Below are positions 41,865-59,371 of a DNA stretch of 64,000 nucleotides, piece by piece. A program made the position numbers and the translations under genes. The notes under the pieces were generated by a model. That model did no database searches and was not told the DNA's origin. It worked only from the letters and a program-made list of their open reading frames with translations. Source of the DNA: Deltaproteobacteria bacterium (lineage in GTDB: Bacteria; Desulfobacterota; JADFVX01). Location: contig JAOUBX010000007.1 of assembly GCA_029860075.1 (NCBI GenBank), forward strand, positions 35,355 through 99,354, given 5' to 3'. Position 1 is the first letter of the stretch, and each line of letters begins with the position of its first letter.

Positions 41865-42889
41865 TGCAGGCAAGCTTACCTAAAATCGGCATCTCCATGG
41901 GAGACCCTGCGGGAATCGGGCCGGAAATAATCCTTAAGGCCCTGACAGATGAAAAGGTTCTGAATACTTGCCTCCCTCTTGTCATCGGTGATAGCGGTGT
42001 CCTTCATGAGATGGCCAAAAAGCTGGATATTCCTTTTCCGCTGACCTCACTGGATACCCTTTCAGATTGGCAAGATAATTCTTCTCCTGCCATCCTGTCT
42101 CTTACATCGCTTCAGCATGCAGTCTGCGGAGAAGTATCCAAATCATCAGGACATGCCTCGGGCTTGTACATTCAAAAGGCCGCAGAACTTGCCCTTGGCG
42201 GTGAAATTGACGGCATTGTTACGGCGCCCATTAACAAGGAATCATTCAATCTGGGAGGTTTTGACTATCCGGGGCATACGGAATTTCTGGCCCACCTTAC
42301 TAAAACGGAAAATTACGCCATGATGCTCATGGGGGAGACGCTGAGAGTGGTGCTTCTCACCATTCACTGCCCACTCATGGAGGTTGCCGGGAGACTTACC
42401 AGGGAAGACACGATAAGGATTATCAGGCTCTCCCATGAAACGCTGAAAACATATTTTGCCATAGAAAATCCCAGGATTGCCCTGGCTTCGTTAAATCCAC
42501 ATGCCGGAGAAGGGGGCCTATTTGGTGAGGAGGAGGAACAAATCCTTATCCCTGCATCCCGTATGGCCAGGGAGGAAGGCATCGATGTGACTGAGCCTCT
42601 GCCGGCAGATACGCTCTTTTTCAGCGCCGTCAGGGGAAAGTATGATATCGTTGTATGCCCTTACCATGATCAGGGCCTTATTCCACTGAAACTGCTTCAT
42701 TTTGAAGACGGTGTCAACGTAACGCTTGGTCTTCCCATTGTAAGGACCTCTCCCGATCACGGGACGGCTTTTGATATAGCCGGAAAAGGTCTTGCAAAGC
42801 CGGAGAGTATTAAGGCTGCTATCTTTACAGCCCTTACTATGATCCGGGCGAAGAAGACATCTCAAGGAGGCATTGCTTATGAAAAGTGA
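41864..42889 (+). CDS. pdxA: 4-hydroxythreonine-4-phosphate dehydrogenase
   Basis: GDPAGIGPEI, TAPINK, GHTEFLA, LNPHAGE.G and YHDQGLIP motifs are present. Confidence 0.9.
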   Translation: MQASLPKIGISMGDPAGIGPEIILKALTDEKVLNTCLPLVIGDSGVLHEMAKKLDIPFPLTSLDTLSDWQDNSSPAILSLTSLQHAVCGEVSKSSGHASGLYIQKAAELALGGEIDGIVTAPINKESFNLGGFDYPGHTEFLAHLTKTENYAMMLMGETLRVVLLTIHCPLMEVAGRLTREDTIRIIRLSHETLKTYFAIENPRIALASLNPHAGEGGLFGEEEEQILIPASRMAREEGIDVTEPLPADTLFFSAVRGKYDIVVCPYHDQGLIPLKLLHFEDGVNVTLGLPIVRTSPDHGTAFDIAGKGLAKPESIKAAIFTALTMIRAKKTSQGGIAYEK

Positions 42890-44312
42890 AATAAAATTCG
42901 GTACTGACGGCTGGAGAGGTGTTATCAGCCGCGATTTTACCTTTGAAAACGTGAGGTGGGTGAGTCAGACCGTGATTGATTACCTGAAAAAAGAGCATCT
43001 CCATGGGAAAGGGCTTGTCATCGGTTATGACAGACGCTTTCTTTCAAAAGAATATGCCCAGGAGGTTGCTTCTGTTGCCGCTGCCAACGGCGTAAAGGTT
43101 TTTATGGGGAAGAACTTTGTTCCCACTCCTGCCGTGTCCTGGGCCGTCAAGGAAAAGAACGCCGCAGGCGGGATAATGGTAACGGCCAGCCACAATCCGC
43201 CAAAATACAATGGTATCAAGTTTAAGGAGGCTTTTGGTGGTTCGGCCTTGCCGGAGACGACGGCCCTTATCGAAAATATGCTTGAGAAAAGACAGCAGGA
43301 GGGAAAGGAACCCCTTTCCGGCAGTTTTGGTGATGAAGTGGCAAAGGGAAATATTATCGACTATGACCCTCTCGAAAGTTACTTGAGGGCAGTGCGAAAC
43401 TTTGTTGATCTCGATAAGATCAAAGGGAGTGGTATCCGGGTTGCCTATGATCCCATGCATGGCGCAGGTAGTGGCAGTATTGGCGCCATACTTGATGAAA
43501 TAGGCATAGAGGTAAGGGAAATAAGGGGGGATGATAACCCCGGTTTTGGCGGCATCAGTCCTGAGCCGATAGACAGGAACCTGGAAAAGCTCATGAAGAT
43601 GGTGGCCCGGGAGAACTATGATATCGGCCTTGCCACTGACGGAGATGCAGACAGGATTGGCGCCGTTGATGGTGAAGGAAAGTTTTTTAACTCTCACAGA
43701 ATACTTACGGTGCTTGCCAGGCATCTCATTGAAGAGCGGGGAATGCAGGGCAGTATCATCAAGACGGTTTCGGGAACAGCCATGATCGATCATATGTCCC
43801 GTAAGTTTGGATTAAAGGTGGAAGAAACGCCTATCGGTTTCAAGCATATTTGCAAGAAAATGCTAAAGGGAGGCGTCTTGCTGGGAGGAGAAGAAAGCGG
43901 CGGCATCGGTATTACCTCACACCTTCCCGAAAGAGACGGTATTCTCGTCGGACTTTTGCTCGTAGAAATTATGGCTGTTAAGGGGAAGGGCATCTACGAT
44001 GTGCTGGAAGAAGTTTTTCATGAATTCGGTCCTTTCCATTACGACAGGATCGATGTGGAGATAAAAAAGGAAGAGATGGCAACGGTGAGATCGCTCCTTG
44101 AAAGCTATCACCCGCAAAGCATTGCCGGTATGAAAGTAAAGGGTGAAAACAGGATGGACGGTGTCAAATTCCTTCTGGGAGAGAGAAGCTGGCTTCTCAT
44201 CAGGGCTTCGGGAACGGAACCGGTACTCAGAATCTATGCAGAGTCCGACTCCCCTGAAAATGTAAAGAAATTGCTTGATGAAGGAAAAGAGGCTGCCGGG
44301 CTTAGGGATTGA
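42879..44312 (+). CDS. Phosphoglucomutase/phosphomannomutase family protein
   Basis: FGTDGWRG, active-site TASHNPPKYNGIKF, metal loop ATDGDADR, GGEESGG, and RASGTEP near the C-terminus. The ATG at 42879 follows AAGGAGG. Confidence 0.88.
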   Translation: MKSEIKFGTDGWRGVISRDFTFENVRWVSQTVIDYLKKEHLHGKGLVIGYDRRFLSKEYAQEVASVAAANGVKVFMGKNFVPTPAVSWAVKEKNAAGGIMVTASHNPPKYNGIKFKEAFGGSALPETTALIENMLEKRQQEGKEPLSGSFGDEVAKGNIIDYDPLESYLRAVRNFVDLDKIKGSGIRVAYDPMHGAGSGSIGAILDEIGIEVREIRGDDNPGFGGISPEPIDRNLEKLMKMVARENYDIGLATDGDADRIGAVDGEGKFFNSHRILTVLARHLIEERGMQGSIIKTVSGTAMIDHMSRKFGLKVEETPIGFKHICKKMLKGGVLLGGEESGGIGITSHLPERDGILVGLLLVEIMAVKGKGIYDVLEEVFHEFGPFHYDRIDVEIKKEEMATVRSLLESYHPQSIAGMKVKGENRMDGVKFLLGERSWLLIRASGTEPVLRIYAESDSPENVKKLLDEGKEAAGLRD

Positions 44313-44617
44313 TTAAGAATAGTTCCCCCGGAATCAGCAGCGATTCCCGGCCTGTCCCTATGGAAATCTGCAACAATTATTTCTGCCTGGAATGACGCAC
44401 AGTCATGGTTGTTTCGACTCGGAGGTTTCCGGCCGGAGATCTCTGTCCGGGAGTTTCTGAGAGGTACCGGGTTAAGACCTCTCACTATATTCGAGACAAG
44501 AATTTCTCCTCGCACCCCAAGGGCGCTTGTCACTTTGTTCAGGCGCATTTCAAATGACAGGTCAGCGCAAGTTCCCAAGGGGACATGACTGAGAGATCTC
44601 CCGAATTTATTCAGGGC

Positions 44618-45259
44618 TTAACAGCAGCCCCGAACTTGCGGATGGCAGCAGCAGTCATGATGGTGATAGTCATGGCTGTCATTACAATGGCAGGAACAGC
44701 CGCCATGCGGCCCGCAGTCATCATGATAATTAGGGTGGCAGGTACCATGATGGGAACCATGATGAGGATCACAATGGGAGCCATGATGAGGGTCATCATG
44801 ATGCCGGCTGCATGCATGCTGTCCTGATAAACCACCCATGAGAGAAAGTCCGCCTGCGAGGCCTGTATTGATAAAGTCGATTCCAAGGCGTACCATTCCA
44901 CCGACTTTATTGAGCAATTCCTGGTTTCCTTCATGCGCTTTGGGCGAAAGCGGCATTCCTGTGGGCGCTGAAGCATGATGGTGATGGTAACTTCCGTAGG
45001 GTTGTCCATGAATATGATATTGAGGCGGGAATGCCTGGATCTTCCCGGCATTAGCTGTCCACTGCTTACTTCTGTATGCCTCTGCCTGTCGCTGAAATTC
45101 TTCGTAGGCTTCTTTTGCGCTTGTCCCCTTCTCACCCAATGTTTCCCTTGAGACCACGTTTTCAGTGGCTGCGCTCAAATTTTCTCTGAGAGAATTAATG
45201 TTATCTGCCTTTACTTCTTTTATTGTTTTTGCTGATTTCTTTCGTGGTCTTGTAGCCAT
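44618..45259 (-). CDS. Orphan protein with Gly/Leu-rich segment and extreme His/Cys-rich C-terminal tail (operon gene 11)
   Basis: SD AAGGAG. 213 aa. The last 66 aa contain about 19 His and 12 Cys by hand count (..HHDDPHHGSHCDPHHGSHHGTCHP...HDCCCHPQVRGCC). No signal peptide. Confidence 0.65.
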   Translation of the reverse strand: MATRPRKKSAKTIKEVKADNINSLRENLSAATENVVSRETLGEKGTSAKEAYEEFQRQAEAYRSKQWTANAGKIQAFPPQYHIHGQPYGSYHHHHASAPTGMPLSPKAHEGNQELLNKVGGMVRLGIDFINTGLAGGLSLMGGLSGQHACSRHHDDPHHGSHCDPHHGSHHGTCHPNYHDDCGPHGGCSCHCNDSHDYHHHDCCCHPQVRGCC

Positions 45260-45293
45260 AAATGGTCTCCTTTATAAGAATGTGTGATTATCC

Positions 45294-45917
45294 TTAACAG
45301 CTGAATACCTCACACCACCTGACGCGGGCAATAGTGTTAATGGTGAGGGCAATTAACCTGGCGCCCGGATTTACCGTAATAATATCTTCTTTAATGTGAT
45401 AGCCGGGCTGGATAGGGTCTTTCACCCAGACTAATGTGTGGTCTTCACTATCTTCCACTGCAACTGCAACGAGGGACTTTGCCGTATTGTCATTTTTCTC
45501 CAGCATATACTCAACTGACAGGTGAACGCAGCAACCACCGCCGATTATGCTCTTTTCAGCGCCTATGCCGGCGCTGGATAATAAAAGTGGTTTAAAAAGT
45601 AAGCCCGCTGTTTCAAAACCGTTTAATTTCTCGGAAATAAGTTTCACTCCCTCTTTAGGGTCCCGTATAATCAGGGGTTCTACCAAAAGTTCCTTTGATT
45701 CCTTGCGGCAATGTTTGTGTCCGCAGCAGCATTTGCTCACAGGGTGGCAACAGGAATGACAAAAATGATGATTATGGCCATGATGATCATGCCCATGATA
45801 ATGAGGGCGGTGATAGCTGTATGCAGGGGAATTTGCCCGACGACGTACATTCCGGGTTGCCACATCAGCCGGGTTTCCCCCGGCATCAGCAGAGTTTGTA
45901 TTAATAGTTAAAGCCAT
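45294..45917 (-). CDS. Orphan protein: His/Cys-rich N-terminal region plus about 100-aa beta-rich domain ending RWCEVFSC (operon gene 10)
   Basis: SD GGAGG. The N-terminal region reads HRPHYHGHDHHGHNHHFCHSCCHPVSKCCCGHKHC. The C-terminal domain is paralogous to gene 9. Confidence 0.65.
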   Translation of the reverse strand: MALTINTNSADAGGNPADVATRNVRRRANSPAYSYHRPHYHGHDHHGHNHHFCHSCCHPVSKCCCGHKHCRKESKELLVEPLIIRDPKEGVKLISEKLNGFETAGLLFKPLLLSSAGIGAEKSIIGGGCCVHLSVEYMLEKNDNTAKSLVAVAVEDSEDHTLVWVKDPIQPGYHIKEDIITVNPGARLIALTINTIARVRWCEVFSC

Positions 45918-45956
45918 GTTTTGTCCTCCAAATAAAAAAATAATAAAAAGTTTAAA

Positions 45957-46412
45957 TTAACAAATCAGGTCTTCACACCACCTTAGCCTGGCCCTGCATT
46001 TTTTTACCGTTAAACTGATTACCGAACCCGGCGGGAGTTGAAGGGGTAATTTTTTCACATAATATCCGGCAGGCGCCGATGTAATAGATAGAACCACTAC
46101 AGAGTCAACTTTTACTTCTACTAATAAGGGGTCCGAACCGTCAGAGAGGTATTCCAGATTGACGGTAACGTCATTTTCTCCACCAATGTATGTTTCGGCC
46201 TCTCCTATCCCGGCAAAGCTGTCGGCAAATATTTCTTGAGGGTACTTTATAAGTATTGCTGATGGACAGCAACACTCATGGGGCGGATGATGGCAGCCGG
46301 GACAAAATTCCGCTGAAGGTACAGCATAATAATGGGGCGCCGGAGTCTGATAGTTATACCCGCAGCACGGGCAGCAAGACGCATGATGCGCAGGGTAAGT
46401 ACAGTTATGCAT
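45957..46412 (-). CDS. Paralogue of gene 10: Cys/His-rich N-terminus plus beta-rich domain ending RWCEDLIC (operon gene 9)
   Basis: AGGAGG lies 9 nt upstream of the ATG at 46412. The N-terminus reads HHASCCPCCG...CPGCHHPPHECCCP. The shared positions AGIG..IGG..V.LEY...PG...LT...AR.RWCE...C align by eye with gene 10. Confidence 0.65.
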   Translation of the reverse strand: MHNCTYPAHHASCCPCCGYNYQTPAPHYYAVPSAEFCPGCHHPPHECCCPSAILIKYPQEIFADSFAGIGEAETYIGGENDVTVNLEYLSDGSDPLLVEVKVDSVVVLSITSAPAGYYVKKLPLQLPPGSVISLTVKKCRARLRWCEDLIC

Positions 46413-46430
46413 TTTCACCACCTCCTGAAA

Positions 46431-46613
46431 TTAGGGTTGTTGTTCCTTGGTTGCTTCCTTGATGCTTTCCAGGGTATCATCGACTATACTGAAACTGCTT
46501 TTTACTACCGTATTTAAAACTTCTGTAACACCCTCGGTAAGCTTGCTCGATATAATTTGATTTGCCGTTTCATTGATTACCTTGTTTAATGGTCCCAGCA
46601 GACTTATTGCCAT
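46431..46613 (-). CDS. 60-aa hypothetical helical protein (operon gene 8)
   Basis: SD GGGAGGTGA. Amphipathic sequence with no Cys or His. No recognisable family. Confidence 0.5.
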   Translation of the reverse strand: MAISLLGPLNKVINETANQIISSKLTEGVTEVLNTVVKSSFSIVDDTLESIKEATKEQQP

Positions 46614-46665
46614 AACATCACCTCCCTGTTGGATTAAATTTTTTTCTATTCCTGTTGTTGTGCTT

Positions 46666-48126
46666 TTATTGGATAAAAAGATGGCGGGCTGATATACCCT
46701 TTTTCATTGAATGAATTCCAAGATCTGAAGCTTTTGAGATTACATCCATTCCCCAATTGAGATTTTTTGTGGGGTTTTCCATCATTCTGCTAATAATCCT
46801 CGTTAAGTCTATTAATGTCCTTAATCCACTTTTAAGAACCCCGCCGGACCCATTATTTTGGGACTGATTCAACAGTTTAATCCAGAATGCCGGATTGACA
46901 GGAATGGCGTTCACTATGGTTAAGGGTGAGAAGCATGCGCTTGCCGGTGTCACGCCTGTAAATATTCCGCCACACATGTCTCTGAATTCCTTACTGTTTC
47001 TTGTCATCTCACAAATCATTTTCAGTGCAAGAAGGTAGGCTTCTCTTAAATTTGGATTTCTTGCGATACTTAATATGAGACTCCCTGTGAGCCTGTCCAG
47101 TCCTGATATGTCATCCTGGATTTCATTAAAGCTATTTAGGTTTTCAGCGGAAAAGTCATTTCTTTCAAGAGCATTCATGGCGATAAAAGCCGCCAGGTGA
47201 CCACCTTCAAGGGCAATATGAATACCGCCGCCATTTATGGGGTCCGTCATATTTGCCGCATCGCCTATCAAAAGGACCCTTTCTGCGACGGTTTTTTCCA
47301 ATTTAGGAAAACAGGCCCTGCCGCCGCCCAGTTTTTCCGGTTTGGCGTCTTTTTTTAAGCGATGAGACAGATTTTTTGCGACAAAATCGTCAAAAACCTC
47401 TTTAAGATGAGGTTTCATGGGGAAATTGGCGTCATAAACATAGCCGACACCCACATTTGCACGTCCACTGTCGTCGGCAAAAACCCAGCCATAACCGGGG
47501 AAAAAATCTTTATCGAAGTATATCTGGACTTTCGATTTATCTATGATCATGTCGGGGTAATATGCCCTTATGGAAGCGGCAACGGACTCCCCCTTAATAC
47601 TGTTGCCGATCTCCCTGGAAACGACCGAGTTTACACCGTCAGAACCAATAACCATTTTGGCTTCATAGGTGACAGGTGCATTATCTTCAATGGCTTCTAT
47701 GCATATGCGATCCTTTTTGGCAGCAATTTTCTTTACATGGCAGCCTTCTTTAAACGTTACTCCTGATGAAACGGCATTTTTTACCAATATATGGTCAAGC
47801 GTTCTCCGTTCAAGTTGTACGCCGAAACCGGGGAACTTTTCCCCTTCCGGAAAACCGCTGGAAATAACATATTCGCCGTTGACATAAAGGTCACCTGAAT
47901 CGGTATAGCCTTTACATTCATCGAGTACCTCATTAATGCATCCCAGCATATCGATCCAGTAAACGGCTTTAGGGGCCAGAAAGTCACCACAAACCTTATC
48001 TCTGGGGAACCTGGACTTATCGAGTAATAAGACATTTACCCCTTCCCTTGCAAGAAAGGTAGAGGTGCTGCTTCCACCGGGACCGGCACCGACGACTATG
48101 ACGTCATAAAAATTGTTGTTTGCCAT
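46666..48126 (-). CDS. FAD-dependent oxidoreductase, geranylgeranyl-reductase family (operon gene 7)
   Basis: The N-terminal YDVIVVGAGPGGSSTSTFLAREGVNVLLLDKSRFPRDKVCGDFL and the later LIGDAANMTDPINGGGI are typical of the GGR/FixC-type family. At 486 aa it has a C-terminal extension. Confidence 0.7.
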   Translation of the reverse strand: MANNNFYDVIVVGAGPGGSSTSTFLAREGVNVLLLDKSRFPRDKVCGDFLAPKAVYWIDMLGCINEVLDECKGYTDSGDLYVNGEYVISSGFPEGEKFPGFGVQLERRTLDHILVKNAVSSGVTFKEGCHVKKIAAKKDRICIEAIEDNAPVTYEAKMVIGSDGVNSVVSREIGNSIKGESVAASIRAYYPDMIIDKSKVQIYFDKDFFPGYGWVFADDSGRANVGVGYVYDANFPMKPHLKEVFDDFVAKNLSHRLKKDAKPEKLGGGRACFPKLEKTVAERVLLIGDAANMTDPINGGGIHIALEGGHLAAFIAMNALERNDFSAENLNSFNEIQDDISGLDRLTGSLILSIARNPNLREAYLLALKMICEMTRNSKEFRDMCGGIFTGVTPASACFSPLTIVNAIPVNPAFWIKLLNQSQNNGSGGVLKSGLRTLIDLTRIISRMMENPTKNLNWGMDVISKASDLGIHSMKKGISARHLFIQ

Positions 48127-48161
48127 TAGCTGCTTCCTGTTTGATCAGGATATATTTTACT

Positions 48162-48863
48162 CTAAACAGGGGAACTCACAATGATTACCAGGGGTATTTG
48201 ATACTCATCTTCCCCTGAAACGGTGACGAGGCCCCTGTATGCATCAGGCGGTGCATTTTCAGGTATCTTCCCTGAAAATACGAGTTTCTCAAAATCCATC
48301 GGTGCAATGGATATTTTTGATGGATTAATTTTGAAGGACTTTGCATTTATCTGGAAATTAGTTTTATCTCCCACAAAATCAGCGGCAGCCGCAAATTGCA
48401 GTTGTTTTGATCCCTGATGCGTTTCATTATCTATTGAGAAGGAAATCGTTACTTCACCACCGGCAAAGGCAGGCATCCTGTTGCTGACAAGGGGCTGGCT
48501 GTTTTCCGGTTCCTGCCGATGGTTTGGCGGTGCTTCAGGAGGCGCTGTTTGTTCCTGGCTCTGGCCTGTAAATTTTCTGATTAAATCTTCATAGTTTACT
48601 TTTGGGCCTGATGAATCTTCCTGCGTCTGGGTTTTCAATATGTCTGACGCCTTGTCGGAGGCAACGCCTCCAAGTTTGCTAACCAGGTTAACGCCCAGTT
48701 CAAGCCCTGTTTCTACAAGGTCGATCCCTCTGTCAAAAATTACGCCTATTTTGTCAATATTGTCCTTCGATGAATGGTTGCTGGATTGAGACGCTCCTTC
48801 GTCGCCGCCTTTAGAAGAATTTCCGTTCTTTTTTTGAGACTTTTCCGATTCGGTTTTAACCAC
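48162..48863 (-). CDS. Orphan protein: low-complexity N-terminus, Gly/Leu motif, Ig-like C-terminal domain (operon gene 6)
   Basis: GTG start after AGAGGA. GIDLVETGLELGVNLVSKLGG resembles segments in genes 5 and 11. The C-terminal roughly 100 aa look like a CARDB/NEW3-type beta-sandwich (..PDAYRGLVTVSGEDEYQIPLVIIV). Confidence 0.6.
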   Translation of the reverse strand: MVKTESEKSQKKNGNSSKGGDEGASQSSNHSSKDNIDKIGVIFDRGIDLVETGLELGVNLVSKLGGVASDKASDILKTQTQEDSSGPKVNYEDLIRKFTGQSQEQTAPPEAPPNHRQEPENSQPLVSNRMPAFAGGEVTISFSIDNETHQGSKQLQFAAAADFVGDKTNFQINAKSFKINPSKISIAPMDFEKLVFSGKIPENAPPDAYRGLVTVSGEDEYQIPLVIIVSSPV

Positions 48864-48964
48864 TTTATCCTCTTTATGCTTTATTTTTACGGGTACTTTG
48901 GGGTATGTACTATGGCATTTCTTCCCCTCTATCCCGAAAATCTATCTTTTTATACTGCCGCTAT

Positions 48965-49279
48965 CTAACAGCAGCAGGAACAGCCGCATCGTTCATGATG
49001 AGGAGGATAGCAGTCGACTGTATAGCAGTGCTGATCACAGCAATGACTGCTGCACCCATGATGACCGTGATGACCGGAGTGATGGTAAGAATGAGACCCG
49101 CCACACCTCGGATCACCCCAGATAGCGCTGTCCACTATATTTTTTACCAAAGAAGACCCACCGTAAATAAAAGACGATGCCAGGCTTGTCAAACCGCCTG
49201 CAATTCCTGCCAGCCCACCTGTTTGTACCGGATAAGGCGAATGGCATGGATGATGACCATGGTAACCATGATAACTCAT
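48965..49279 (-). CDS. 104-aa His/Cys-rich protein with central Gly/Leu segment (operon gene 5)
   Basis: SD GGGGAGGG. There is a 4-nt overlap with gene 4. The sequence runs MSYHGYHGHHPCH...GGLAGIAGGLTSL...HSYHHSGHHGHHGCSSHCCDQHC...CGCSCCC, with about 16 His and 12 Cys by hand count. Confidence 0.65.
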   Translation of the reverse strand: MSYHGYHGHHPCHSPYPVQTGGLAGIAGGLTSLASSFIYGGSSLVKNIVDSAIWGDPRCGGSHSYHHSGHHGHHGCSSHCCDQHCYTVDCYPPHHERCGCSCCC

Positions 49280-49884
49280 TTTGTTCCCTCCCCATGAATT
49301 GTTAAAGCGACCCTGCTTGCATTTCTTGCAAAAGATGAGACTTCACCTGAAGCCATTGATGCCTCTCTGCATTTTGAAGGAATAGCAGGATTTCCTCCTG
49401 TTGCTTCTATGGCATAACTGCGGTTATGCCTTATTTCCTGTTCTTTCCTGTATTTGTCCCGTGGAATCATATGGGTGCTGCCTTTTAACAGTATTCTGAA
49501 TAGTTCCAGACCCAGAAATTTTCCGCTTACCGTATAATTAGAGGGTACGTGAAAGTCCTGGTACGTTCCAACGGAGATTGGCGGCATTCTTCGTACATTC
49601 ATATCAAGCGGCGGAAGTTGCCTTAAAGCCACATTCATGGGGGGAAGGTTGGTCACCTGAAATTTATCGACTTTGATTGGGTCGATATTTCGGACCTGGT
49701 TGACATGAAAGGAATCGATATTGATAGGATCTATGTGATTGATTTCCTTTACGTGATGGGCAACAGGGTCAATATTGCGGACTTCTTTAACATGGAGGTC
49801 TACAGGGTCAATGCCTTTAACCTCCCTTATTTTCAGGTGTACACTTTCGCTATCACTGTCATTTTGTAAATAAACATTACCCAT
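49276..49884 (-). CDS. Orphan repeat protein with about 7 tandem 10-16-aa IDP(V/I)/LPP units (operon gene 4)
   Basis: SD AGAGGGA. Repeats run LKIREVKGIDPVD / LHVKEVRNIDPVA / HHVKEINHIDPIN / IDSFHVNQVRNIDPIK / VDKFQVTNLPPMN / VALRQLPPLD / MNVRRMPPIS. Confidence 0.6.
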   Translation of the reverse strand: MGNVYLQNDSDSESVHLKIREVKGIDPVDLHVKEVRNIDPVAHHVKEINHIDPINIDSFHVNQVRNIDPIKVDKFQVTNLPPMNVALRQLPPLDMNVRRMPPISVGTYQDFHVPSNYTVSGKFLGLELFRILLKGSTHMIPRDKYRKEQEIRHNRSYAIEATGGNPAIPSKCREASMASGEVSSFARNASRVALTIHGEGTK

Positions 49885-49962
49885 CTTTTATCCCTCTTTG
49901 CGTCTAAGATTTATAAAAGCTTCTTGTAAATGGTAAAGAGAACCGATCAACTATATATCGTT

Positions 49963-50682
49963 TTATGCCGGCCACTTATAATTTGCTAAAATTATCTTCG
50001 CTTCATCGCCGGCAGAGGTCCCGTTTAAAGAAACTTCAACAGTAACTACTGTTGTTGCTTCGCTTATGCTGTTTGGTGCGCGGTAAAAACCGCCGTTATC
50101 AATACTTCCCACTACAGGGCTTCTTGTCCAGGTGATATTCGATGATGTGGAATTACTGATAATAGTCCGGAATTGCTGGACCTTATTGCTATTATCTATA
50201 TAGTTATTCTTATGTCCTGTACGGCAATATAAGTGCACGACCTTCGGGAAAATTTCGATAACCGGTTCGGCTTCAGGTTCAGGACCCACACCTACAATGT
50301 TGACGATGGCCGTTGCTTTCCTGGTGGGATCATCAATTGATGTGGCAACAACGATATCCGTCGTATAATTGCCATAATCAGTATCCGCATCATAATCAGG
50401 CGCTATATAAAGACCTGATGAATTGATACTGCCTTCCCCCGGTTCTCCTTTTTCATTAAATACTTCCCACCTGACTCTGTTTGTGGGGGCATTGAATATT
50501 GCCGAATCAAACTGTATCCGCGTATTTACAGGATCAACGTAGCGTTCATTTTTGAAGTAAACTTCTGCATTTTCAGGCCATATCTCGATTTCTATCTGAT
50601 GCTCGCAAATGATGTGATGATGCCTTACATGGGGTAAGCATCTAACCTGATGGTTTCTATGTCTATGCTTATTTAAATACAT
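49963..50682 (-). CDS. Orphan protein: His-rich N-terminus plus two tandem Ig-like repeats (operon gene 3)
   Basis: The N-terminus reads MYLNKHRHRNHQVRCLPHVRHHHIICEH. It is followed by two roughly 95-aa repeats, each starting IEI(W/F)P and containing (W)...G.I...G.Y.AP. No obvious SD. Confidence 0.55.
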   Translation of the reverse strand: MYLNKHRHRNHQVRCLPHVRHHHIICEHQIEIEIWPENAEVYFKNERYVDPVNTRIQFDSAIFNAPTNRVRWEVFNEKGEPGEGSINSSGLYIAPDYDADTDYGNYTTDIVVATSIDDPTRKATAIVNIVGVGPEPEAEPVIEIFPKVVHLYCRTGHKNNYIDNSNKVQQFRTIISNSTSSNITWTRSPVVGSIDNGGFYRAPNSISEATTVVTVEVSLNGTSAGDEAKIILANYKWPA

Positions 50683-50712
50683 AAGTGATTGGTTTTTACC
50701 GGAAATATATTT

Positions 50713-51132
50713 TTACTCGTCACAGTCGATGAGGCCGAGTTCTATTGACGGCTTTGCTGAAACCTTGCCATTTAATTTGCCTTCCGCCTCTATTTCGGAA
50801 GAGCACTTCATTTGCCCATCCATTTCCCCGCTTATCTCATCTGTTTTGACTGTTCCGCTTAATCTGAAGGAAGCTCTCTTTACTTTCAGATCAAAGGGGC
50901 TGATTCTTGCCTTAAAAGCCCCTACCGATGCAATCAATACGGGCGCGCGTTTTTTTCTGAAAGGGACAGTCATCTTAATGGGGATTTCATCTATAGCAAT
51001 GTTTATTTCACCGACAGTCATGTCGCCGCGGCCGGAAGCAGTGAGGGAGGCTTTGCACTTGAGCGGATCAAGGCGGGTTTTCATTTTGAAAGAGGGGTTG
51101 CTTTTTAGTATTCCTTTAGCTTTAAAATTCAT
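50713..51132 (-). CDS. Basic beta-rich orphan protein (operon gene 2)
   Basis: SD GAGGAG. The start lies 2 nt after the gene 1 stop. 139 aa, ends LIDCDE. No recognisable family. Confidence 0.55.
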   Translation of the reverse strand: MNFKAKGILKSNPSFKMKTRLDPLKCKASLTASGRGDMTVGEINIAIDEIPIKMTVPFRKKRAPVLIASVGAFKARISPFDLKVKRASFRLSGTVKTDEISGEMDGQMKCSSEIEAEGKLNGKVSAKPSIELGLIDCDE

Positions 51133-51134
51133 AT

Positions 51135-51338
51135 CTACTTCTCCTCACAATCAGAAATTTCACCTTCTTCCCCTTCGGGATAAACACGATCTGCAAGATC
51201 GCCGCACATATCATCGAGGGTGACATTTAAATTTTCGTAGCCTGCCAGGGCTTCATTGAGTTCATTGCAGTTGTCACCTGAAACCTCGAATGAAACGAGC
51301 GGCCCCAGTCTGACTTTAAGTACGATTCTGGACGACAT
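51135..51338 (-). CDS. 67-aa acidic orphan protein (operon gene 1)
   Basis: SD AGAGGGGA. Ends EGEEGEISDCEEK. It is the first gene after the divergent intergenic region. Confidence 0.5.
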   Translation of the reverse strand: MSSRIVLKVRLGPLVSFEVSGDNCNELNEALAGYENLNVTLDDMCGDLADRVYPEGEEGEISDCEEK

Positions 51339-51401
51339 ATAAAGTTCCCCTCTAGTCGATGAAATAATAAAAAAACAAAGTTCTTTCGTAAAATAAGATC
51401 A

Positions 51402-51429
51402 ACTTATATAATTAAAGCAAAATATAAGT
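51402..51429. promoter_or_regulatory. Inverted repeat ACTTATAT-N12-ATATAAGT in the divergent intergenic region (candidate operator)
   Basis: Read directly from the AT-rich 222-bp spacer between the two divergent operons. Confidence 0.3.
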
Positions 51430-51560
51430 CAAGTTATTTTTGAACCAAATGTCAAGGGGCGCAGACTCCTAATGGAATCTGTATAGAAAGTTTACTCCAT
51501 GAAATGGGGGTTGGCAAAAAAAGTTTTTGACCTGAGGAACGAAAAAAATAAAAGCAAGCT

Positions 51561-53309
51561 ATGGTCCAAATTAACGATGTGGATTCCAATAAGATGACCT
51601 TACATTGTCCGGAAAATTGTGCAACTTTAGATAGAGACAGTTATTCTTATTACAACAGTAAGAGAGATCCTCACCCTCCTTCACAGGAAATAGAGATAGT
51701 CAAAACCATATTTCTTAGAGAATACGGGAAAAAGGATCCTCCTTCGGGCAGAATCAGAAGTGGTACCTTTGATGATTTTATGTCTTCTCTGGCAAGTCTG
51801 AAAGCAAAGCATGTAGACACAATCATTCTGCTTCCCCTTCATCCCCTTGGCAAGGCCCTGTGGGGCGCTGTGGCCAGTCCCTATGAACCGATGGATTATT
51901 TTTCAATAGAGCCCTCTCTTGTAAAACATAACTGGGGAGCAGGCACGGCGCGGCTTAAGAGTGAATACAAGCGCTTTAAAAAGAATCATCTCCCCGGAGA
52001 AATGGAGGAATTCAGGCTCTTTAAAAAAAATGTAAGAGTTCTGGAATATGCAAAGTACAATGCAGCAAAACTTATTAGCCGGGAAAAAAACAGGGCATTG
52101 AATGATTTTACTGATTATAAAGATGAGCCTCATTACAAACTGCTTATGGAGGAAACGCTCTTTGAGCAGTTTGTGGCAAGGAAGAAATTCCTTGGTTTTA
52201 TTGAACATGCCCACTGGCTGGGATTGAAGATTATCATGGATATTCCGGGATATTTTGGTACAGACAGTATTGCCGATCTCTTTTATGAAAATTATATCCG
52301 TAAAAATAAAGACGGCACTTATTACCAGCCCGGTTTCGATCAATGGGGGCATGGATGGTATACGCTCAGGCAAATGGAGGTAAATAACTCCAAAGCGCTT
52401 CATTATTTATGTTCCATCTACAGGTATTGGGTTGATGAATTCAAGGTGGACGGCTTCAGGATCGACGCCATACTGACTCAGCCCGATCTTTATGTAAAAG
52501 CTATTCGGCAAGCTGTACCCCATACCTTTCTCCTGGGAGAAACGATAGGAACGTTTAAAGGTGATATTGAAAGGAAGTATATTGATGAGCTTAAGCTCGA
52601 TTCAATCTATAATCCTGAATGGATATGGACAGGTGATATAAAGAAATATCTTGTAAAAGCGCACAAAAGACCTTCCGGCAGGCGATTGTTTCATATGAGG
52701 GATACTCATGACGAAGGGAGGCTCAAAAAGGGAGACCCTTTTTCCATACCTAGAAAGAAGTACCTCTCCCTCCTGGCAATGGCACTCCTGGGACTGCCGG
52801 GGAAAGATATTATCGGTTTTCTCGATGGAAACTTTGATTTGCTGGAAGGGACTCCAGAGCTTCACGAGCTTTATCTGAAAGAGTTTTATGTTGCTGATCA
52901 AAGCAGTATCTGCTTTTCCGATGGGACGGAACTTGGCTCATCAGAGTATATTAAGCGGCTCATATATCTTAGAAAAAAACTTGATCCCCTGAGAAAGAGT
53001 GGTAATATTGTCTTTCTTGAACAATGGAGCAAGCAGATCTCTTCCTATGTGAGAGAAGGGGAAAAGCTTGACGTCATTGTTATAAGCAATGTGGGAGATG
53101 TGAATTTCAGCGGTTCCGTTAAGATCCCGGTAAGGGCCGGTTTTTTTATCGATGAAAATAGGGACATTTGCAAAGATCTCATATCTGGTAAAAGAATAGG
53201 AATTCCTTGCTCCACAGGCAAAGGTATTATATTAACGCTCGATATCGGCCAGTCAGTGGCTTTCTCATTGAAGAAAGGCGATTGCTCTCTTTTGAGAAAG
53301 CAGATTTGA
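51561..53309 (+). CDS. Divergent GH13 (alpha-amylase superfamily)-like protein, cytoplasmic
   Basis: Matches to GH13 conserved regions: region II VDGFRIDAI, region III FLLGETIG, region IV-like MRDTHDE. The region I-like IIMDIPG lacks the usual His. No signal peptide and no clear SD. Confidence 0.55.
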   Translation: MVQINDVDSNKMTLHCPENCATLDRDSYSYYNSKRDPHPPSQEIEIVKTIFLREYGKKDPPSGRIRSGTFDDFMSSLASLKAKHVDTIILLPLHPLGKALWGAVASPYEPMDYFSIEPSLVKHNWGAGTARLKSEYKRFKKNHLPGEMEEFRLFKKNVRVLEYAKYNAAKLISREKNRALNDFTDYKDEPHYKLLMEETLFEQFVARKKFLGFIEHAHWLGLKIIMDIPGYFGTDSIADLFYENYIRKNKDGTYYQPGFDQWGHGWYTLRQMEVNNSKALHYLCSIYRYWVDEFKVDGFRIDAILTQPDLYVKAIRQAVPHTFLLGETIGTFKGDIERKYIDELKLDSIYNPEWIWTGDIKKYLVKAHKRPSGRRLFHMRDTHDEGRLKKGDPFSIPRKKYLSLLAMALLGLPGKDIIGFLDGNFDLLEGTPELHELYLKEFYVADQSSICFSDGTELGSSEYIKRLIYLRKKLDPLRKSGNIVFLEQWSKQISSYVREGEKLDVIVISNVGDVNFSGSVKIPVRAGFFIDENRDICKDLISGKRIGIPCSTGKGIILTLDIGQSVAFSLKKGDCSLLRKQI

Positions 53310-53355: not shown

Positions 53356-54288
53356 ATGATTGATATTGATGATTTTATAAAGAATGACAAAGGGCAGCAG
53401 GAAATCGATCATTGCCTGAAGAGGCTTCGTGATAAAGCTGATGAAGTTTTACGGCCTCTTGCCACAAGCTATTATCCGGCCATGATAGCCCATGATCATG
53501 CCAGTGAATTCAACAAAATGCGTGAGCTCAGCACCAAAATGATGCTTGTGGGGCAGGCATGTGCAGAGATTGCCGGATATGAATTTAATGATAAGCTCAT
53601 TATGTTAAGTGCGCTTTTCGGCGGTTGCTGCTTTCTGGGTGATAGCTTTATCGATGATTATGACGATGAAGAAACACTGGATTATATAAACAGGCTGGAG
53701 CGGCTCCTTACAAAAGGGTGGTTTGAAATAAGTGATGACCGGGAAAAACTCTTTTATGTTATCGTGACAAGGCTTTTTTCTGAATGTGATGTTTTTGAAG
53801 AGAAAACACGGCAGGCCATTTTCGGACAGTTTCTGGCCCAGAAAAGGGATGCTTTATGGAGGCTGGACCATACAGAACTTATGTCCTTATCTCATGATGA
53901 GAAAATCGACGCCCTTCTCCAGTGCGCCAATGACCGGGGTGGATATGTGACTCTCGTACTTTCACTTGTCCTTACTGAGGAGCTTTCTCTGCATTATCAG
54001 CATATTCTCTATCTGGCCGGTAAGCTTTTTATGCATATCGATGACCACGGCGATCACCATCAGGATAAATACAACAAAAGATTTACCTATATGAACAGTA
54101 TCGATAATCCGGCTGATAAACTGGAAAAACTTTTCAATAATATTGTTTCAAAGATCAAGTCGGACTTGCCAGAAAATGGCGGACGTGATATTTTAACAAA
54201 CTTTTTGACACGCTATTATCACACACGCTTAAAAAAACATATTTTGGAGCAAAACAGGGGAAGCAGCAGGTGGGTAATTTATGAATGA
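53356..54288 (+). CDS. All-alpha protein with two DDxxD motifs (isoprenoid synthase / ComQ-like fold candidate)
   Basis: FLGDSFIDDYDDEE at about residue 95 and MHIDDHGDHHQD at about residue 228. The spacing of about 130 aa resembles the FARM/SARM spacing of trans-isoprenyl diphosphate synthases. Confidence 0.4.
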   Translation: MIDIDDFIKNDKGQQEIDHCLKRLRDKADEVLRPLATSYYPAMIAHDHASEFNKMRELSTKMMLVGQACAEIAGYEFNDKLIMLSALFGGCCFLGDSFIDDYDDEETLDYINRLERLLTKGWFEISDDREKLFYVIVTRLFSECDVFEEKTRQAIFGQFLAQKRDALWRLDHTELMSLSHDEKIDALLQCANDRGGYVTLVLSLVLTEELSLHYQHILYLAGKLFMHIDDHGDHHQDKYNKRFTYMNSIDNPADKLEKLFNNIVSKIKSDLPENGGRDILTNFLTRYYHTRLKKHILEQNRGSSRWVIYE

Positions 54289-54874
54289 CTATTCCCATAA
54301 TTACAGGAAGTTATTCGATCGTTTTTCTATAGAACTTCAGTCAATTTATAAAAGGCCATCTGAAAAAGAAAAGGCTCCCCTATTTAATATCAGTTGTGAA
54401 AATGAAGCGGCAAAGGCCCCATTTCAATATGACTCGGCAAATGCCGTTCTTCACAGGACAGGCTGTAAATATATTGATGGAAAATACAACCTTTCTATTT
54501 TTGCCCTGTGGGAAATCAACGAGGAAGACCTCGCTTTTGCCTGTAAAAAATGTAAGCCTCATTTAACCGGAGGAGAGGGTTTGGAAAAAGATCCAGTTTC
54601 AGATATGATGTACGGTATTTTTTCTCTCATCGACCAGTTTGGCTCGGTCCTTATAGAAAGAGGGAAAGAGTATAAAAAAACAGGCAGCGGTAAAAAGCTT
54701 GCCCATTCATTAGGCGCTAATCTCAGTGAACAGCAGGAAAAGCTCCTCGATAAATCCATATCCAGCCTTGACTTGCTCATTAATTCTCTTCATCAGCTCA
54801 ATATGCAGCTGGAAAGCGGGGAGAAGAGAGACAAAAAAGAAGAAAACCATGGTAATTCGGAAAGCGCCAGGTGA
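54281..54874 (+). CDS. Hypothetical protein with H..C...C..C Zn-ribbon-like motif and coiled-coil C-terminus
   Basis: HRTGCKYI...ACKKCKP. It has an 8-nt overlap with the upstream gene and a 4-nt overlap with the downstream gene. Confidence 0.45.
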   Translation: MNDYSHNYRKLFDRFSIELQSIYKRPSEKEKAPLFNISCENEAAKAPFQYDSANAVLHRTGCKYIDGKYNLSIFALWEINEEDLAFACKKCKPHLTGGEGLEKDPVSDMMYGIFSLIDQFGSVLIERGKEYKKTGSGKKLAHSLGANLSEQQEKLLDKSISSLDLLINSLHQLNMQLESGEKRDKKEENHGNSESAR

Positions 54875-55776
54875 GTTCCCATCACTTTACAAGCCGGTAC
54901 AGAAAGAATCTCGACTGGCTGCAAAGCAAGGCAGTTAGTGACCTAAACTATGATATACAGGGGACTTTTTTAACGCTGGAGGTCGATGATAAGGAGCTTC
55001 TGAGCTTGCTGGCAGAGCGTTATGGTTGTTTTTTTTACGGGGAAAAAGTTTCTTCCTCGCGCAGAATCAAAATTAAGAAAAACAAGAGACACTTCATTTT
55101 TACAGATTCCCAGGGGAAATCGTTTCCTTGCCGTCATATGGGTGAAGTACTTTATCCATACCTGGCCCACACTTTCGATGAAATATATGAAGCTCTGGCA
55201 GGCCATTTAGTCTTTCATGGTTCAGCTTTTTCAACAGATGCCGGTGGTATATTGATATTGGGGAGAGCGGGAGCAGGGAAGACCAGCCTCCTCCTGGAAA
55301 TGATTAAAAGGGGTTTTTCTTATATCTCCGATGATGTTTCAATCGTGGATATTTCAGGGAGAAAGGAGTTAATCCCAAATCCACAGGGCTTTAAATTGAG
55401 AGAGCCGCTGTTAAGCTGTCAGGGTGTTGAAAGGTCAGGTTTTAAGGGTAAATATATTAATCCATGTAATATTGATAATTTGGATATTTCATCGACATGC
55501 CCCTTGTTGGCAGTCATATTGCTGGCTGATGAAAAGGGTAATGGTTACGCCGGTCGTCCTGCTTATTTTGGTGATTATGCAGAACCTTTAAGTAAATTGA
55601 TTATTCCCCCTTCAGCAAGAAAGTCTTCTTTAGGGACAATTAGCGCCCTTTTTGATAAAATACCACTTATAGTCATGAATTCCTCAAAAGAAATAGCTGT
55701 TGAGAAAAAAGCTCAAAATATTCTGGACCGGCTTGATCTCAATCACAAAGGTAATTCCACATTAAAAGCAGGGTGA
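54871..55776 (+). CDS. HPr-kinase-C-terminal-like P-loop protein (HprK-related kinase)
   Basis: FHGSAFSTDAGGILILGRAGAGKTSLLLEMIKRGFSYISDDVSIVD matches the HG..V...G.GVLI.G.SG.GKS......L...G..L..DD pattern. Confidence 0.55.
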   Translation: MSSHHFTSRYRKNLDWLQSKAVSDLNYDIQGTFLTLEVDDKELLSLLAERYGCFFYGEKVSSSRRIKIKKNKRHFIFTDSQGKSFPCRHMGEVLYPYLAHTFDEIYEALAGHLVFHGSAFSTDAGGILILGRAGAGKTSLLLEMIKRGFSYISDDVSIVDISGRKELIPNPQGFKLREPLLSCQGVERSGFKGKYINPCNIDNLDISSTCPLLAVILLADEKGNGYAGRPAYFGDYAEPLSKLIIPPSARKSSLGTISALFDKIPLIVMNSSKEIAVEKKAQNILDRLDLNHKGNSTLKAG

Positions 55777-58909: not shown

Positions 58910-59371
58910 TGGTTTCTACAAATTCTAAGGTTAAGCGTTATAAAACAAGCGAGACAATATCAATAACCTGATATCTCTCCTGGCCGGCATTAAAATACTT
59001 GGGATAGAGTCAACAAAAGAGCTTTTTACCTTCTAAAAATATAAAAATTCCACCCCAAAACCAAAGTTACCATCTATTTTAAGGAGCGCAAATTTTTTAT
59101 TAATAATCAGGATCGGCAGGTATCGAAAAAATATTTATAAAAACTTGCATGTGGAAAAACAGATGCTAGAGTTAATCTAGGGGTGGGGATCCCTTTCTTC
59201 TTTGTTTTGTCATAAAAACACCACACTTCTTTAATAAGAGAGAACGTACAGTCACTATCCGGACAATTTTAATATCCGCAAGAGAATCATCATTATTGAA
59301 TATTATCATAATAATTTAAACCAAACTGTCAGTCTTTGAGAAAAGTAACTTTATCAAGAAAGGACGTAGAA

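Follow-up and report, generated by a model that had tools for sequence, protein, structure and literature searches.

The window analysed here, a 64,000-nt stretch of a Deltaproteobacteria bacterium contig (GenBank JAOUBX010000007.1, assembly GCA_029860075.1, positions 35,355 to 99,354), carries a conserved module of 13 genes, here named g-1, g-2 and g1 to g11, whose carriers belong to at least ten phyla and which is almost certainly doing something specific and transferable. Judged by sequence comparison, 11 of the 13 proteins appear to belong to no described family, and the module appears to match no magnetosome, gas-vesicle, bacterial microcompartment (BMC), encapsulin, spore-coat, metallothionein, ribosomally synthesised and post-translationally modified peptide (RiPP), phage or defence system tested. 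We tentatively propose, from the genes alone, that it builds a cytoplasmic protein assembly (a coat, scaffold or inclusion) which is associated with an isoprenoid lipid and linked through thiols.

An earlier note on this DNA had described a tight array of eleven same-strand open reading frames (ORFs), and these were found exactly where they were first listed, consecutively on the minus strand between 44618 and 51338 (Table 1). From g1 to g11 the gaps are 2, 30, 78, -4, 101, 35, 52, 9, 39 and 34 nt. Shine-Dalgarno sites, which had been called good at nearly all of the genes, precede ten of the eleven and are of the GGAG type; g3 is the exception. At the GTG listed as the start of g9 the Shine-Dalgarno site abuts the start codon, an ATG three codons downstream gives normal spacing, and the 151-aa form of g9 is the cluster representative in public collections; the true start is probably this downstream codon. 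The CCC motifs reported for four of the proteins were also located: KCCCGH in g10, ECCCPS in g9, DCCCHP in g11 and CSCCC in g5. Long alternative-frame or antisense ORFs run over g11, g10 and g5 (44585-44827, plus strand; 44611-45135, minus strand; 48905-49297, plus strand; 45711-45911, plus strand), and these appear to result from the repetitive codon make-up of the His- and Cys-rich stretches, not to be separate genes.

All genes of the cluster are under purifying selection. Against the orthologous locus L064, a related contig which has the same housekeeping neighbours and encodes cluster proteins 58-90% identical to those of the window, every cluster gene shows a ratio of nonsynonymous to synonymous substitution rates (dN/dS) of 0.04-0.18, including 0.08 for g-1, 0.15 for g-2, 0.08 for g1, 0.04 for g2 (the lowest in the cluster), 0.08 for g4 and 0.12 for g8; the adjacent housekeeping genes taken as controls gave 0.064 (phosphoglucomutase) and 0.118 (PdxA). 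Low ratios in every gene, and an arrangement shared by dozens of unrelated genomes across phyla, show that these are real genes and rule out a reading of them as spurious ORFs. The approximately 140 bp upstream of g1, which hold a promoter-like site (TTGACT-17 nt-ATATAA), are about 90% identical to those of L064, though synonymous sites between the two loci are near saturation (dS at least 0.8). This conservation and the tight packing bear out the reading as an operon, and one that looks expressed. Neither a riboswitch nor any other RNA element was found in the operon leader, and no sigma-54 site or upstream motif common to the loci was found.

The description of the eleven proteins as orphans did not hold. 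Every family has 36-55 orthologues in the loci that we fetched, and homologues number 298 for g10 and 135 for g-1, which rules the orphan reading out. The homologues of g10 come from metagenome-assembled genomes (MAGs) of several phyla, and all are annotated as "hypothetical" and lack Pfam domains; each of the window's own proteins forms a singleton or doubleton cluster at 90% identity. The unit also proved larger than the eleven genes first seen, two genes having been overlooked: the module comprises 13, in the order g-1, g-2, g1, g2, g3, g4, g5, g6, g7, g8, g9, g10, g11. Iterated profile searches found the complete set of 13 families in 30 of 55 loci; contig ends truncate most of the others. 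By family, the numbers of loci are 52-53 for g-2, 52 for g1, 50-51 for g2, 49-50 for g3, 46-47 for g4, 40 for g5, 43 for g6, 39 for g8 (profile search) and 36 for g11. The two additional genes precede g1 on the same strand in Seep-SRB2 E20 (Deltaproteobacteria), Calditrichia, Nitrospira sp. T9, Bryobacteraceae and a "Rhodobacteraceae" MAG, and g-1 opens the module in nearly all other loci; in the window, g-1 and g-2 are divergent from the rest, and a further gene, g0, stands between them and g1.

Table 1. Genes of the module and the adjoining features in the window
Feature	Position	Strand	Length	Description
g1	51135-51338	-	67 aa	small acidic protein
g2	50713-51132	-	139 aa	basic; beta-rich look from sequence
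g3	49963-50682	-	239 aa	two tandem homologous domains of ~100 aa, probably immunoglobulin (Ig)-like; lineage-specific His-rich N-terminus
g4	49276-49884	-	202 aa	Pro-containing repeats of 11-12 residues and conserved C-terminal core (..RSFP..AGNPAIPS)
g5	48965-49279	-	104 aa	Gly/Leu amphipathic segment and metallothionein-like Cys (here also His) tail, end ..CSCCC
g6	48162-48863	-	233 aa	disordered N-terminus, Gly/Leu amphipathic segment, low-complexity linker, conserved C-terminal domain (beta-rich look)
g7	46666-48126	-	486 aa	geranylgeranyl-reductase-family flavoprotein (TIGR02032)
g8	46431-46613	-	60 aa	small; helical look from sequence
g9	45957-46421	-	154 aa (probably 151)	Cys-rich N-terminus and domain homologous to the g10 jelly-roll; end ..RWCEDLIC
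g10	45294-45917	-	207 aa	disordered N-terminus, Cys motif, helical linker, eight-strand jelly-roll
g11	44618-45259	-	213 aa	charged N-terminus, Gly/Leu amphipathic segment, metallothionein-like tail, end ..CHPQVRGCC
g0	51561-53309	+	582 aa	divergent alpha-amylase-superfamily protein (GH13/GH77-like); accessory neighbour, non-core
g-1	53356-54288	+	310 aa	class-I isoprenoid (terpenoid) synthase-fold enzyme
g-2	54281-54874	+	197 aa	putative zinc-binding protein (HxxxC...CxxC), helical C-terminal half
divergent promoter region g0/g1	51339-51560			TTGACT-17 nt-ATATAA and GAGGGG Shine-Dalgarno site of g1

The distribution of the module was assessed with a profile of g-1, scanned against one genome per GTDB species, and the gene was found in 54 species. 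These include Desulfobacterota, Nitrospinota, many Nitrospirota and Gammaproteobacteria; Alphaproteobacteria (Acetobacteraceae, Caulobacter sp. BK020, Reyranella, Rhizomicrobium and Rhodospirillales URHD0017) and Betaproteobacteria (Paraburkholderia panacisoli DCY113 and Rhodocyclaceae); Verrucomicrobiota, Acidobacteriota, Dehalococcoidia (Chloroflexota) and Solirubrobacterales/Actinomycetes; and a "Bacillaceae" MAG, Methylomirabilis, Calditrichota and Chitinivibrionales. Wherever a fetched locus extends far enough to reveal the neighbours, g-1 is followed by more genes of the module. Both diderm and monoderm bacteria are found among the carriers, which range from strict anaerobes to aerobic soil bacteria. 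Transposase genes of the IS1595 family lie directly beside the module in a Seep-SRB2 MAG (L003, 2019-2681) and in a Bryobacteraceae MAG (L009, 1-758). The patchy distribution, taken with these neighbours, is consistent with horizontal spread of a transferable and self-sufficient module. An origin from a phage, a plasmid or a defence system was rejected: no relatives of g-1 were found on viral contigs or on PLSDB plasmids, PADLOC returned nothing for the cluster, and the sole match in PHROGs was a weak one to an Ig domain.

Compact, collinear and patchily distributed clusters of mostly small, non-enzymatic proteins without secretion signals are also known from gvp, encapsulin and BMC loci, and in this the module resembles them; it differs in its isoprenoid enzymes and its Cys-rich proteins, both absent from those systems. 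Pfam and NCBIfam searches found no marker domain of the Mam/Mms, GvpA, BMC-H/P, encapsulin shell or Cot types in the 13 core proteins, in g0, or in the HprK-like and PilB-like proteins encoded nearby, and no mam, mad or man genes or Pfam markers were found. Full-text literature searches, whose coverage was not exhaustive, returned no description of such a cluster, and inclusions are not mentioned in the text of PMC5947290, consulted for the Seep-SRB2 homologue. PDB sequences were searched with phmmer and hmmsearch, using single sequences and profiles of 24-40 sequences (g-1, g-2, g2, g3, g4 and g6), and nothing was obtained under an E-value of 0.06. The claim that the gene set matches no characterised system has thus held against Pfam, NCBIfam, PHROGs, PADLOC, PDB profiles and the literature. 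The earlier note had named hits to a known system, or a lack of conservation and purifying selection, as findings that would undo its proposal, and neither was found.

Two of the 13 genes, at least, encode predicted enzymes of isoprenoid metabolism, where one enzyme (g7) had been recognised before. The AlphaFold2 (AF2) model of g-1 is all-helical, with a mean predicted local distance difference test score (pLDDT) of 92.9, and its top 50 Foldseek matches in the PDB are all isoprenoid synthases (template-modelling scores, TM-scores, of 0.32-0.63; listed probabilities 0.98-1.00), among them CrtM (3ae0), GGPPS (5jfq) and the diterpene synthase 7e4n (all three at TM-scores of 0.59-0.62), as well as synthases of geranylgeranyl and farnesyl diphosphate, class-I terpene synthases of bacteria and HpnC (4hd1). 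Two invariant Asp-rich motifs stand about 130 residues apart. In the first, D96, D100 and D101 are invariant within a consensus DSFIDDFGEE, which is of the DDxxD/E type; the second, D229-D230-x-x-D233-x-x-x-D237, has a spacing that fits DDxxD, DxxxD and NSE/DTE alike. Together these correspond to the two-motif Mg-binding arrangement of the isoprenoid-synthase superfamily. The motifs of this predicted enzyme are compatible with head-to-head synthesis, with a transferase or with an enzyme of the cyclase type. No match was obtained in Pfam or NCBIfam at E <0.1, nor among PDB sequences with either the single sequence or a 40-sequence profile. By predicted structure and motifs g-1 is assigned to the class-I isoprenoid-synthase superfamily, in no sequence family: it has the all-alpha fold and paired motifs of these enzymes, and differs from them in the lack of detectable sequence homology, in TM-scores of only 0.45-0.62, in the form of its second motif and in having an obligate Zn-type protein partner. 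This partner, g-2, comes directly after g-1 in every locus, with an 8-nt overlap in the window, and its H58, C62, C88 and C91, conserved in at least 51 of 53 sequences, suggest a putative zinc site; no significant match to g-2 was found in the PDB or Pfam.

The second enzyme, g7, is the only one of the eleven first-listed proteins with a Pfam or NCBIfam match, scoring 200.6 bits against TIGR02032 (cutoff 158.8), and its assignment to the geranylgeranyl reductase (GGR) family by the earlier note stands. The best PDB match is 3oz2, the digeranylgeranylglycerophospholipid (DGGGPL) reductase of Thermoplasma (E 2.7e-25, 330 residues aligned), with which its two FAD motifs align, VVGAGPGGS (GxGxxG Rossmann) and LLIGDAANMTDPINGGGI (LxGDAA type). 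Two features mark the GGRs (3oz2/3atq): a conserved Cys, numbered 47 in the enzyme of Thermoplasma, and the substrate-clamping motif YxWxFP. In g7 the Cys of the CGE motif is retained (KVCGDFL versus RCGEGL of 3oz2) and YxWxF is kept with the last P replaced by A (GYGWVFA versus GYIWVFP). The scores against specific subfamilies all lie far under the equivalog cutoffs (MenJ, 124 versus 700; DGGGPL reductase, 110 versus 580; BchP/ChlP, 101 versus 343), and g7 carries an extra C-terminal region of about 150 residues relative to GGRs. By family g7 is a GGR-type prenyl reductase, in no defined subfamily; it shares the family score, the FAD motifs, the CGE Cys and YxWxF with enzymes such as 3oz2, ChlP/BchP and MenJ, and its context is unlike the lipid, chlorophyll or quinone pathways in which those act. 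A single-sequence pattern scan of GTDB found no close relative of g7; the profile scan with g-1 succeeded. Among the 39 loci that span g6 to g9/g10, one copy of g7 is present in 26, two in ten and none in three. The ten loci with two tandem GGR paralogues are mostly from Alphaproteobacteria. Neither the module of L064 nor that of one MAG from Nitrospirota has the gene, and in a MAG from Deltaproteobacteria it seems to be truncated; the positions recorded for these three cases are L064 9203-9293, L015 15961-16518 and L014 ~15253-15506.

The remaining proteins fall largely into the small paralogous families that had been proposed, and hhalign confirmed g9 with g10, g5 with g11 and g6 with g11. 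For the first pair the match is 99.8% (E 5e-30). In g10, a motif F-C-x-S-C-C-H-P-x3-C-C-C-G-x4-C, which holds one His and has six of its eight Cys either invariant or conserved to 90% or more, leads into two helices and then a beta-sandwich of eight strands, whose first strand contains GGGCC and whose last strand closes the protein with ARVRWCEVFSC; the Cys of both strands are conserved. The AF2 model of g10 has a pLDDT of 77.8 overall and >85 in the beta domain, and Foldseek matched the domain to sandwiches of the carbohydrate-binding module (CBM)/jelly-roll type (E ~4e-4, TM-score <=0.41); against viral models it gave generic beta-sandwich matches only, and no more specific match came from the PDB. 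The g9/g10 superfamily has 207 representatives among 1.84 billion proteins, none of them with extra domains, and such a small, closed superfamily is typical of a dedicated structural component.

In the profile-profile comparisons g5 matched g11 with 86.9% (E 4e-6), and g6 matched g11 over the Gly/Leu segment with 76% (E 2e-5). This segment, of about 35 residues, has a helical hydrophobic moment of 0.46-0.56 (0.56 in g6) and a modest mean hydrophobicity. The invariant residues of g6 include N128, R129, S141-F-S143 and D190-F191, and no PDB match was found for it. As to g3, the profiles of its N- and C-terminal halves match each other (98.5%, E 4e-15), which establishes the tandem duplication of a domain of ~100 aa that had been proposed; the Ig-like identity given to it in the same proposal rests on this duplication and on the weak PHROG "Ig domain" match (E 0.0019), and PDB sequences gave no match. 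The repeats and core of g4 were seen in an alignment of 27 orthologues, and g4 had no match in the PDB or Pfam. For g1, g2 and g8 there were no detectable relatives in curated families, with g1 searched against Pfam, NCBIfam, PHROGs and PADLOC. A bactofilin (PF04519) identity for g2 was rejected, the match being 16 bits over 33 residues against a threshold of 27.9, and a 26-sequence profile of g2 finding no PDB chain.

How these parts may act together can be set out only as a possibility. The isoprenoid enzymes g-1, with g-2 as its obligate Zn-protein partner, and g7 would produce an isoprenoid with some or all of its double bonds reduced; the beta-rich g2, g3, g4, g9 and g10 and the C-terminal domain of g6 would serve as building blocks; g5, g6 and g11 would dock onto the lipid phase by way of amphipathic, glycine-zipper-like helices; and the Cys-rich motifs and the C-terminal CC ends would hold the assembly together as metal-thiolate clusters, as disulfides or as points of isoprenoid attachment. 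On this view the structure would bind metal, though this need not be what it is for. A cytoplasmic structure fits three observations. First, none of the eleven proteins has a signal-peptide-like N-terminus or a lipobox, and no transmembrane helix was found, the most hydrophobic 19-residue window staying below 1.5 (Kyte-Doolittle) in every structural protein, in agreement with what had been read from the sequence at the outset. Second, the carriers are both monoderm and diderm and, third, no export component is conserved with the cluster. That the families are closed is in keeping with such an assembly too. The system is probably self-assembling, with thiol chemistry central to it. Were an intracellular, lipid-associated structure of this kind real, it would be a new entry in the short list of bacterial organelle-like assemblies. 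On this reading, as on the prenylation reading below, the compact and self-contained parts of the module, which are jelly-rolls rich in Cys, tails like those of metallothioneins and a lipid branch, might be of interest for metal-binding or self-assembling biomaterials.

Several observations weigh against such an assembly. The AF2 models cover two of the 13 proteins, g-1 and g10, and the Foldseek matches of both are weak, with TM-scores of at most 0.62-0.63 for the former and <=0.41 for the latter. The motifs of g-1 fit head-to-head synthases and terpene synthases equally. The absence of g7 from the locus in three of 39 cases, the closest relative L064 included, implies either that a reduced isoprenoid is not indispensable or that a gene outside the locus provides the reductase. 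The lack of signal peptides is compatible with non-classical export or with release by lysis. Lastly, the CBM-like fold of g10 and a recurrent GH13 neighbour could point to an alpha-glucan, and not a lipid, as the partner.

The position of Cys at the very ends of four proteins raises a different explanation. At least one of the final three residues is a Cys in 33 of 40 g5 sequences, 35 of 39 of g9, 36 of 39 of g10 and all 36 of g11 (140 of 154 in total), as against 5 of 333 in the other seven families; the ends take the form CC, xC or CxC, and the C-terminal consensus of g11 is P-[GS]-V-G-[SN]-C-C. This would be accounted for by bacterial protein S-prenylation, in which g-1 would ionise a prenyl diphosphate at its Mg/Asp-rich site, the zinc of g-2 would activate the C-terminal Cys thiol of g5, g9, g10 and g11, and g7 would saturate the chain, so that the lipidated proteins would be held on a lipid body or on the cytoplasmic side of the membrane with no need of transmembrane helices. 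Of the readings considered, such a scheme accounts for the largest number of features at once: the ends (..CC, ..SC, ..CxC) are Rab-like, an isoprenoid-synthase-fold enzyme, an obligately paired putative Zn protein and a prenyl reductase are all encoded in the same module, and the four proteins have no other membrane anchor. Both of its halves have partial parallels, in that the eukaryotic farnesyl- and geranylgeranyltransferases use zinc to activate a Cys thiol, and ComQ, an isoprenoid-synthase homologue, prenylates the ComX peptide, on Trp and not on Cys. The likeness to the Rab/CaaX and ComQ/ComX systems thus lies in the ends of the substrates and in the co-encoded isoprenoid-synthase fold and putative zinc site. 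With the protein prenyltransferases themselves, however, the resemblance is in the substrates only, g-1 and g-2 being unrelated in sequence and fold to the alpha/beta enzymes, and no Pfam domain of the alpha-subunit (PPTA) or beta-subunit prenyltransferase repeats occurs in the proteins of the locus. The terminal Cys of g5 and g11, moreover, sit in tails that are already 14-24% Cys, the ends share no common recognition motif, and the terminal Cys of g9 has been lost in some lineages, such as Bryobacteraceae. There is no precedent for endogenous bacterial Cys-prenylation or for protein-bound prenyl reduction, a literature search having found none, and we know of no protein-bound prenyl reductase. 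We regard S-prenylation as rather unlikely on balance, and it is a little more doubtful still that the module is an S-prenylation machine with its clients, forming a new intracellular coat on the membrane or on lipid bodies that has spread horizontally among at least ten phyla. If the C-terminal Cys were prenylated, this would be the first endogenous bacterial system of protein prenylation, with a new type of enzyme.

The density of His and Cys had originally been read as a sign of metal binding, and of this reading the Cys half has survived. Cys makes up a median of 24% of the last 50 residues in g11 and 14% in g5; His, in contrast, accounts for 0-8% of g11 in 36 orthologues versus 12% in the window, and for 1-16% of g5. 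Across the orthologues Cys-richness is the conserved property and His-richness a lineage-specific one. It is conceivable, if unlikely, that the module stores or detoxifies a metal (Cu, Zn, Ni or Cd) or a metal sulfide in the cytoplasm, with the tails of g5 and g11 and the motif of g9/g10 sequestering it on a scaffold. The dense and conserved Cys, including those of the g10 motif with its six Cys conserved to at least 90% and its one His, would suit such a role, as would the many added His residues in the lineage of the window. Genes for a cupredoxin or an Nramp transporter also occur near the module in individual loci (L064, 11498-11860; L008, 7942-8274; L009, 11662-12903). Yet the His-richness is not conserved; no metal transporter, metallochaperone, metal-responsive regulator or other metal-sensing element, riboswitches included, is conserved beside the cluster across loci; carriers that range from strict anaerobes to aerobic soil bacteria have no obvious metal stress in common; and the isoprenoid enzymes and nine proteins that are not Cys-rich would be left unexplained. 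The tails do resemble metallothioneins in Cys density and in CC/CxC spacing, and differ from them in being fused to non-Cys regions of 50-150 residues, which makes the proteins larger, and in containing Tyr, His and Trp; neither g5 nor g11 has a Pfam metallothionein match. With proteins of the Mms6, MamG and MamD type, g5 and g11 share a Gly/Leu-rich hydrophobic segment followed by a short C-terminal tail rich in metal ligands, although the segments of g5 and g11 are amphipathic and not transmembrane, and the ligands are Cys versus the acidic residues of Mms6.

The architecture of the g9/g10 pair calls to mind the Ena endospore appendages. The N-terminal connector of Ena1B uses its Cys10 and Cys11 to form bonds with Cys24 in strand B and Cys109 in strand I of the subunits next to it (bioRxiv 10.1101/2020.08.21.260141). 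By analogy, g9 and g10 might polymerise by strand augmentation into a disulfide-cross-linked fibre or coat, displayed or released outside the cell, with N-terminal Cys bonded to the first and last strands of their neighbours. Like Ena1A/B (DUF3992), g9 and g10 would be single jelly-roll subunits encoded by adjacent paralogous genes, without signal peptides, and the N-terminus of g10 is both flexible and rich in Cys, with further conserved Cys in the strands that open and close its sandwich; Ena2A (9i0y) is also among its Foldseek matches (TM-score 0.40, probability 0.89). That match, however, holds only rank 43 amid generic jelly-rolls, and there is no sequence relation, neither g9 nor g10 having a Pfam match at E up to 0.1, the Ena family DUF3992 included. 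The eight-Cys/His motif of g10, in place of the CC pair of Ena, provides far more Cys than a connector needs; the module has eleven further conserved genes, with isoprenoid enzymes among them that a fibre would leave unexplained; and the carriers include diderm, non-sporulating and anaerobic bacteria. Disulfides are unlikely in cytoplasmic-type proteins of sulfate reducers and strict anaerobes, and nothing for export, or resembling a sortase, is conserved alongside the cluster. We therefore hold an Ena-like fibre to be distinctly improbable.

That the genes serve to make a terpenoid natural product or a lipid, with the small proteins as carriers, immunity or regulatory factors or RiPP-like precursors and not as parts of a structure, is very doubtful, for although two isoprenoid enzymes are present and a fold-level analogy exists to HpnC/HpnD and the flavoprotein reductase of bacterial squalene synthesis, non-enzymatic proteins about the size of a domain, with a beta-sandwich, repeat or amphipathic architecture, account for ten of the 13 conserved genes, no tailoring enzymes, transporters or regulators are conserved with the cluster, the Cys-rich proteins have large conserved folded domains unlike those of RiPP precursors, and no RiPP-maturation protease or cyclase was found with Pfam or NCBIfam. 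Some carriers are in culture, for example Caulobacter sp. BK020, Paraburkholderia panacisoli DCY113 and Nitrospira sp. T9, which makes it directly testable what the module does.

The neighbourhood of the module varies among the loci. Downstream of g-2 in the window, and overlapping it by 4 nt, is a gene for an HPr-kinase-C-like P-loop protein (54871-55776, plus strand), followed by one for a PilB/T2SSE ATPase (55784-57577, plus strand). Both were set aside as parts of the module, being syntenic only in the closest relative L064, and their arrangement is probably lineage-specific context. The PilB-like ATPase shares 62% identity with its counterpart in Candidatus Magnetomicrobium, and no magnetosome genes were found among the window proteins scanned. 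The alanyl-tRNA synthetase (AlaRS) of the host has its best named matches, at 69-73% identity, in proteins labelled "MAG: bacterium" or "Proteobacteria bacterium", and is 56-58% identical to those of Desulfobacterota, Nitrospinota and Nitrospirota. Farther away, a 317-aa ORF next to mreB (17528-18481, minus strand) had no Pfam match at E up to 1e-5.

The gene between the two halves of the module, g0, scores 27 bits against Pfam GH77 and 20 bits against Alpha-amylase, with weak NCBIfam matches to GlgB and TreS, and a homologue stands beside the cluster in the Calditrichota locus L036. Genes resembling GH13 cyclomaltodextrinases or maltodextrin glucosidases flank the cluster in ten loci from at least five phyla, for example at L063 18632-20125, L053 18456-19925, L056 17597-19384, L036 5957-7561 and L016 18155-19504, the g0 of the window being a divergent form. 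In some phyla the GH13 gene is downstream of g11, in others upstream and divergent. This placement suggests repeated recruitment and a possible link to alpha-glucans, as a recurrent, non-universal accessory. Within 8 kb of the module in the window are also a GH31 enzyme with a CBM20 starch-binding domain (59336-62569, plus strand) and a phosphoglucomutase (42873-44312, plus strand), giving it alpha-glucan-related surroundings.

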